From: Escherichia coli
GTDB lineage: Bacteria > Pseudomonadota > Gammaproteobacteria > Enterobacterales > Enterobacteriaceae
Direction: 5' to 3' (one strand)
Assembly (NCBI RefSeq): GCF_003334315.1
Contig: NZ_QOWR01000045.1
Length of the DNA stretch: 41,110 bases
Shown here: one piece after another, positions 30,449-31,500 of the stretch
How the letters are laid out: every line of letters starts with the position of its first letter
How positions within the stretch are numbered: position 1 is the stretch's first letter
Notes under the pieces: model-generated
Told to the model about the DNA's origin: nothing
Databases searched by the model: none
The model's input: the letters and a program-made list of their open reading frames with translations, nothing else
Position numbers and translations under genes: made by a program

Positions 30449-31500
30449 TTATTTTTTAGCAGAACCCGCTTCTAATATTGAAACGATTGAGAACAACGTA
30501 AAGCATACCGCTCCCAAACCGACCAGAACTCGCGAAGGAATAAAATATCCCATGTCGGTCTGCGCCATTTCCGCAAGAAACGATGCCAGGAAAAGGCAAA
30601 ACAGGCAGGTGAAGACGGGAATCATCGGTATTCTGTTGGCTAACGAACAGGTACGTCTCCATACCAGTGCCAGTAGCCAGACTTTTGAGAATATGCTGTA
30701 ACAGATCATTCCGAGGCAAATAAGAATAATGCCGGGAGCCAGTCGGGCGCTTGCATCGGAACTGACTAAGACGTATATCCCCTGCAGTACCGTGATTGAG
30801 CCGAGAAAAATAACCCAATAACACCACAGCCAGTGTTCTTTAGTTGAAAACGTATTACGTGTTTGATGGACAATTGTGGCAACAAGGCCAATTAGACAGG
30901 CACAGATTGCGGTTAACCCAAGCAATACGTGACCCGCGACATAATGCGGAGTTATGTCAGCACTACGTAACAGGTAATAGACCAAATGAAACCGAGCAGG
31001 GTGAGTAAAACGGGAACGGCAATGAGGCAGTTACCGATTAATGAAGAATAAGCCTGTACCGGTGTTCCGTCGCTCTTGCTCCCCGCTGCATTTTTGGGAA
31101 TGAGCAGAAAGTGACCGGATGACGCTGCCACCGTCGATACACAGGCGGCAATCATACCAACGCCGAAAATAACATGGCCGGCGACAAACTCGTCTGCCAT
31201 CACATCATTGCCTGCTAACAGTGCCCAACCCCATATCATGGTGATAATTGACCCCGCATAGCCAATAATGGGGAACAATGTATTGTAAAACGTATTAACG
31301 CCGCGCGTGAGCTGCGAAATGATAATAAATGCGGTAGTGAATAATGCCAGGCATATGGCCGCCAGAGAAATCAGCACATGACCCGCGACGAAATACTCGC
31401 TTTGCCCTGAACTTTCCAGCACAAAGCCACCTAACGCGATACAAATTAAGCCCATAATCAAAGGGATTAATTTGAAAAGCCACCCGATATATATGTTCAC
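30449..31500 (-). pseudogene. yhiM: Inner membrane protein YhiM (DUF2776-like), interrupted by a single-base frameshift near 30970-30975
   Basis: Two consecutive out-of-frame minus-strand ORFs (31599..30952 and 30985..30449). The upstream piece has a GTG start at 31500 (VNIYIGWLFKLIPLIMG). The 176 aa and 174 aa pieces sum to 350 aa, which matches my recollection of intact YhiM. Adding one G/C at forward AGG (about 30972-30974) would fuse ...GFIWSIT to LLRSADITPHY.... Confidence 0.7.

Follow-up and report, generated by a model that had tools for sequence, protein, structure and literature searches.

The window, by which we mean the whole stretch of 41,110 nucleotides of Escherichia coli DNA analyzed here, carries yhiM on its minus strand at 30449..31500, between yhiN and yhiL. 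At 1,052 nt, this former 350-codon coding sequence is one nucleotide shorter than the original 1,053 nt. The ORF listing for the minus strand of 30449-31599 gives two frames at this place, 30952..31599 and 30449..30985, which overlap by 34 nt. The first encodes 215 aa when counted from a far-upstream ATG and 182 aa from the GTG at 31500..31498, and the second encodes 178 aa from a TTG start. In a Pfam profile search, residues 1-176 of the N piece matched positions 1-175 of the 348-position DUF2776 model (E 4.7e-68), and residues 5-175 of the C piece matched positions 176-347 of 348 (E 7.6e-86). Because the two matches fall on abutting halves of a single domain, the pieces are collinear parts of one gene, and taken together they match the whole PF10951 model significantly. 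No NCBIfam model matches either piece. The known counterpart is E. coli K-12 yhiM (b3491; UniProt P37630; WP_001028905.1; DUF2776, PF10951), which occupies the same place between yhiN and yhiL. The locus is orthologous to it in both position and sequence, adjoins the acid fitness island, and lies in a gene order, gadX..yhiN-yhiM-yhiL..yhhJ, that is the same as in MG1655. An earlier note on this DNA had read the two minus-strand ORFs as collinear pieces of one membrane protein and had given a length of 350 aa for intact YhiM. The abutting DUF2776 matches and the MG1655 alignment agree with the first point, and the second is borne out by WP_001028905.1, whose 350 aa equal the 176 + 174 native residues retained here.

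The alignment of 1,160 nt of the locus with yhiM and its flanks from E. coli K-12 MG1655 revealed a single difference, one absent base. On the coding strand, MG1655 reads ATT ACG CTG TTA and the window reads ATTAC-CTGTTA. The absent base is the coding-strand G at nt 528, the third base of codon T176 (ACG), which is missing on the minus strand between C30974 and C30973 (junction 30973..30974); on the plus strand, a C is absent between G30973 and G30974. In standard notation, the lesion is c.528delG, p.Leu177Cysfs*7. Thr176 is retained as ACC, after which the frame continues with CYVVLT and ends at the TAA at 30954..30952. The locus is thus a frameshift pseudogene, with a 1-nt indel that is not divisible by three and that gives a premature stop: the 350-codon frame is no longer intact but shifts at codon 177 and stops at codon 183. 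The truncated frame (30952..31500, minus strand) comprises the 176 native residues, covering TM1-TM5, and the out-of-frame CYVVLT, 182 aa in all. The stranded 3' part (30449..30973, minus strand) holds codons 177-350, covering TM6-TM10, and the stop codon, all now in a frame other than that of the start codon. In K-12, the promoter, coding sequence, and terminator are 100% identical to those of the window at the nucleotide level except for this one base, and it is the absence of G at nt 528, the end of the frame at codon 183, and the loss of in-frame translation of TM6-TM10 that set the window apart. Because the break is a 1-nt difference from an otherwise 100% identical orthologue, it is, judged from the sequence, not a chance pattern.

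That the yhiM frame is broken by a single-base deletion had already been proposed, and the MG1655 alignment, with its one absent base, bears this out; the placement of the break at a forward AGG at 30972-30974 also proves exact. The repair proposed with it, insertion of one C, was partly right. Restoring the frame joins ...GFIWSIT to LLRSADITPHY..., which in the alignment is identical to the reference protein, but the base lost from the coding strand is G. The description of the site as a short G/C run did not hold, since the intact context is CGC and the CC arose through the deletion. Homopolymer slippage is therefore not indicated, and we rejected it. A phase-variable contingency locus was likewise rejected: the ancestral context TTACGCTGTT contains no homopolymer or short tandem repeat, and the lost G has a C on either side.

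The expression signals were located by hand against PMC6604978; a generic scan did not pick them up. In that study, primer extension mapped the start of transcription to an A that lies 22 nt before the GTG, which is preceded by GAGGAG-N6, with ATGAAA as the −35 and TTCAAT as the −10 element. In the window, the matching minus-strand elements are the −35 ATGAAA at 31557..31552 and the −10 TTCAAT at 31534..31529, both identical to MG1655, the start A at 31522, and the Shine-Dalgarno sequence GAGGAG at 31512..31507, upstream of the GTG. The terminator hairpin, at 30398..30431 on the minus strand (11-bp stem, 12-nt loop, and T tail, centered 35 nt past the original stop), also matches the published one, and a simple scanner missed it because its loop is longer than 8 nt. 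yhiM is reported to be monocistronic, with a 1.1-kb transcript (PMC6604978), so no polar effect on the neighboring genes is expected.

With one coding-strand G lost at position 528 of the coding sequence, translation from the normal GTG leaves the frame after Thr176, adds the six wrong residues CYVVLT, and stops. The predicted product keeps TM1-TM5 of a 10-TM, five-hairpin protein. Repaired YhiM has ten hydrophobic segments on the Kyte-Doolittle scale and the encoded truncated product has five, the break falling directly after TM5 of 10; a topology of 10 TM, N-in/C-in, has been described (PMC6604978). Over 93 aa, the N and C halves of YhiM are 31% identical (E 8e-7). A motif of the (F/Y)VAGHV type recurs in the hairpins where the second helix begins. 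These homologous halves and the recurring motif point to an apparent architecture of five two-helix hairpins in tandem, the third of which contains the cut. A sequence search of the PDB returned no solved DUF2776 structure.

The strain may still synthesize the 182-aa, five-TM fragment and insert it into its membrane. For the 3' half, TTG 30985 and TTG 30925 are the sole in-frame starts, and inspection found no Shine-Dalgarno-like sequence before either; without a ribosome-binding site of its own, it is probably not made. No gene is called over the 3' half on the Logan contig described below. The five-TM half-protein may have some activity, and one of the two TTG codons may support a low level of reinitiation. 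A functional split or recoded gene would go further: both halves would be made, through reinitiation or −1/+2 ribosomal frameshifting, and would assemble into an active protein. The position of the break in the short loop between TM5 and TM6, the internal repetition of the protein, and the 34-nt overlap of the ORFs would all suit such an arrangement. However, the frame break is conserved in 0 of 4,220 genomes, and inspection from the last upstream C-frame stop to the TAA at 30954..30952 found no X_XXY_YYZ slippery heptamer, nor is there one in GGTTTCATTTGGTCTATTACCTGTTACGTAGTGCTGACATAA. Neither TTG is preceded by a Shine-Dalgarno-like sequence, and with the cut inside hairpin 3, the C half would need N-out insertion. 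An assembled two-part protein is thus highly improbable in our estimate. Programmed ribosomal frameshifting was rejected, as the break occurs in none of the 4,220 matching genomes and the slippery heptamer is absent, and on these sequence features, recoding or a working split gene appears very unlikely.

The same deletion is carried by three separately deposited NCBI assemblies: the window's own, GCA_003334315.1 (QOWR01000045.1, 41,110 bp, of which the compared part, 26803-41110, is identical), GCA_012531215.1 (DABAWT010000041.1, 42,498 bp), and GCA_002190225.1 (LYBE01000602.1, 40,947 bp). These contigs were recovered through the lineage-specific RbbA E526 variant as a marker, they are 100% identical to the window across 14.2-14.3 kb, and every recovered RbbA-E526 contig that covers the site carries the deletion. 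The lesion is reproduced in the Logan re-assembly of SRR1122540, on a contig reported in 4 samples and 100% identical to window positions 27118-40857 (13.7 kb). An exact look-up also found the exact 182-aa product in a public protein collection, on the Logan contig. This reproduction is at the level of assemblies rather than read pile-ups. Between yhiN and yhiJ, the records of the three NCBI contigs list no YhiM protein, as would be expected if the locus is not annotated as an intact gene. Over 40,721 aligned bases, the window differs from the nearest complete genome, TOE3, by 14 SNPs and by the deletion, which is the only indel, and the genes neighboring yhiM are intact.

A sequencing or assembly artefact, in which the strain truly has an intact yhiM and the contig misses a base, would be consistent with the window being a draft WGS contig and with the presence of the allele in no complete genome. 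Another yhiM frameshift does resemble a recurrent error: the loss of a T from the T4 run at nt 488-491, which also yields a 182-aa product, occurs in at least 4 different haplotypes, and several of its contigs also have fragmented neighboring genes. This T4-run allele probably belongs to the class of homopolymer sequencing errors rather than to real alleles. In contrast, the window allele has none of these features. It is found in three NCBI assemblies of differing extents and in the Logan contig from 4 samples, all 100% identical; its site is not a homopolymer, and it is the sole indel in 40.7 kb, with intact neighboring genes. For these reasons we take the deletion to be genuine, and the assembly error that the earlier note had kept as an alternative is, on this evidence, distinctly unlikely. 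It could be that a single strain or laboratory stock lies behind all three NCBI assemblies and the SRA runs, in which case the mutation might be a product of culture and not of nature.

With an 80-nt junction probe, 4,220 complete E. coli genomes gave a match but not one of them had the deletion, the best match of 98.8% corresponding to the 1-nt gap. yhiM itself was present in 5,379 of 5,426 complete E. coli genomes (99%) in a sensitive search. The gene is near-universal, and from these comparisons the deletion allele appears to be private to a narrow lineage. The coding sequence, promoter, Shine-Dalgarno sequence, and terminator of the window are otherwise identical to K-12. The absence of a second mutation and the untouched expression signals point to a recent event, and the event appears isolated, as the rest of the acid fitness island is in place: the ORFs of gadX, gadW, mdtEF, gadE, hdeD, hdeAB, yhiD, dctR, and slp lie at their MG1655 positions and have about their MG1655 lengths. 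We therefore regard the yhiM loss as a lineage-specific frameshift pseudogene of a known gene, already in public records. In our judgment, it very probably represents a genuine, recent, lineage-specific loss-of-function allele of near-universal yhiM, and the strain would most likely be YhiM-null.

No complete genome has both of the flanking lineage SNPs, the best having 1 mismatch in 1,626 nt. RbbA (rbbA 36803-39538) has E526 where its relatives have V, a variant found on only 8 contigs, and RlmJ (rlmJ 20114-20956) has H105 where relatives have R, a variant found on 34 contigs. The neighboring YhiL fragment was tried as a lineage marker for dating and rejected, its allele being common (1,183 index blocks) and without a close sister; among the matches listed, the carriers of this allele have an intact YhiM of 350-364 aa throughout. 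A K-12 origin of the window was also rejected, given 99.1% identity to MG1655 outside yhiM, no IS5 in yhiS, and an extra pair of arsR-like and permease genes.

Other natural disruptions of yhiM exist. Strain 167 has an IS1 at yhiM nt 274-282 with a 9-bp duplication, 23CRST017 shows the same two-piece IS1 pattern, and truncated DUF2776 fragments are on record from Shigella. Like the deletion in the window, each of these lesions disables, within a single lineage, a gene that is conserved elsewhere. They are of another kind, however, IS insertions or other truncations in unrelated backgrounds, while the window has a point deletion that is seen only in the RbbA-E526 lineage. Engineered nulls (Keio BW25113 ΔyhiM, MC4100/MG1655 ΔyhiM, and CFT073 ΔyhiM) are the expected functional equivalents and are viable with conditional phenotypes. 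They are clean deletions, in contrast to the window allele, which leaves a possible 182-aa, five-TM fragment.

The role of YhiM is disputed, with GABA export, acid resistance, growth at heat and low osmolarity, and copper/Cpx signaling all proposed, and the phenotypes vary by background. Loss of yhiM lowers GABA export at pH 5; YhiM contributes only in part to RpoS-dependent acid resistance and, at pH 2.5 or below, plays no part in resistance that depends on glutamate or glutamine (PMC6604978). Acid, high-temperature, and low-osmolarity defects are attributed to yhiM in papers as cited by PMC6604978 and PMC11005409. In uropathogenic CFT073, yhiM deletion raises copper resistance via CpxAR activation; this copper phenotype is absent in K-12 BW25113, and yhiM loss reduces fitness in mouse urinary tract infection (PMC11005409). 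The connection of YhiM to acid and stress tolerance mentioned in the earlier note is thus found in the literature (PMC6604978 and references therein), but the effects are weak and vary from strain to strain (PMC6604978, PMC11005409).

If these published deletion mutants are a guide to the function lost and to the phenotypes of the present strain, reduced GABA export at mildly acidic pH would be expected, and heat or low-osmolarity sensitivity, or Cpx activation, is possible. Mild effects seem the most likely outcome, because the window allele is of the K-12 type. Since the published null phenotypes are mild and strain-dependent, there may be no visible consequence at all.

It is conceivable that selection, and not neutral drift, lies behind the inactivation of YhiM in this lineage; constitutive CpxAR activation with copper tolerance is one conceivable advantage, and laboratory passage one conceivable setting. 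The copper resistance of the CFT073 deletion mutant via CpxAR (PMC11005409), the independent IS1 knockouts in complete genomes such as those of strain 167 and 23CRST017, and the presence of the allele in all recovered RbbA-E526 contigs covering the site would agree with such selection. Against it, K-12 BW25113 shows no copper phenotype and the window allele is of the K-12-like class, yhiM loss lowered fitness in the mouse infection, and yhiM is retained in 99% of complete genomes. Moreover, selection cannot be detected statistically from a single allele in a single narrow lineage. We consider adaptive loss unlikely. There is a similarly small chance that the allele is a selected knockout acting in a phylogroup-A-like lineage, with CpxAR switched on or with altered metal or GABA handling, or that the five-TM half, with 2.5 of the five hairpins, keeps or gains activity. 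If true, nature would in either case have run an experiment on a near-universal membrane protein that is still poorly understood.

For annotation, the locus is best labeled as a yhiM pseudogene (c.528delG) and not as two hypothetical membrane proteins, and the strain can be handled as a naturally occurring yhiM-null. Its background is non-K-12 and of the commensal type, and together with the intact relatives of 99.96% identity it could form a convenient pair for comparison. Beyond such uses, it is an ordinary lineage-specific pseudogene.

Across complete E. coli genomes, yhiM falls into two deeply diverged allele classes without intermediates: about 4,250 genomes have an allele 95-100% identical to that of K-12, and about 1,129 have one of roughly 80% identity. 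If CFT073 carries the class of about 80% identity, this could help explain the differences between the CFT073 and K-12 mutants in PMC11005409.

In many genomes, copper-resistance genes (PcoE, a CusS/PcoS-type sensor kinase, and CopB/CopC-type genes) lie immediately downstream of yhiM, where the window has yhiN. An insertion site for Tn7/pco/sil between yhiN and yhiM has been described (PMC8417528), and there is no copper-gene insertion between these genes in the window (30135-30448). Copper genes are a curious neighbor for a gene linked to copper homeostasis.

On the other side of yhiM, yhiL (YhiJ/YhiL, DUF4049 family; 31847-33489, plus strand) is split into overlapping ORFs of 424 and 130 aa. 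This frameshift is also annotated in K-12 MG1655, TOE3, and Z1323PEC0011; it is thus an old, widespread pseudogene, unlike the yhiM lesion.

The window contig begins within the 3' end of gadA, a gadA/gadB duplicate (1-102), and terminates within an ISAs1-like (yhhI) transposase gene (approximately 40827-41110). Both ends are repeat-induced breaks, typical of short-read assemblies. A permease gene (14372-15373, minus strand) and a divergent gene for an ArsR/SmtB-family regulator (15480-15776, plus strand) lie between a yhiS-like ORF and arsC. MG1655 lacks this pair, and its yhiS pseudogene carries IS5, whereas the corresponding stretch of the window is without an IS. The Agr antisense RNA (Rfam AgrB; 18195-18278, minus strand), which adjoins dinQ, is present as a single copy in the window and in its nearest relatives, in contrast to the two tandem copies of MG1655 (18097-18180 and 18328-18411 of the compared stretch). 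Rfam matches at the gathering score also place three small RNAs on the minus strand of the window, GadY (1308-1421), ES205 (7200-7271), and ES036 (CssrF; 27057-27097).
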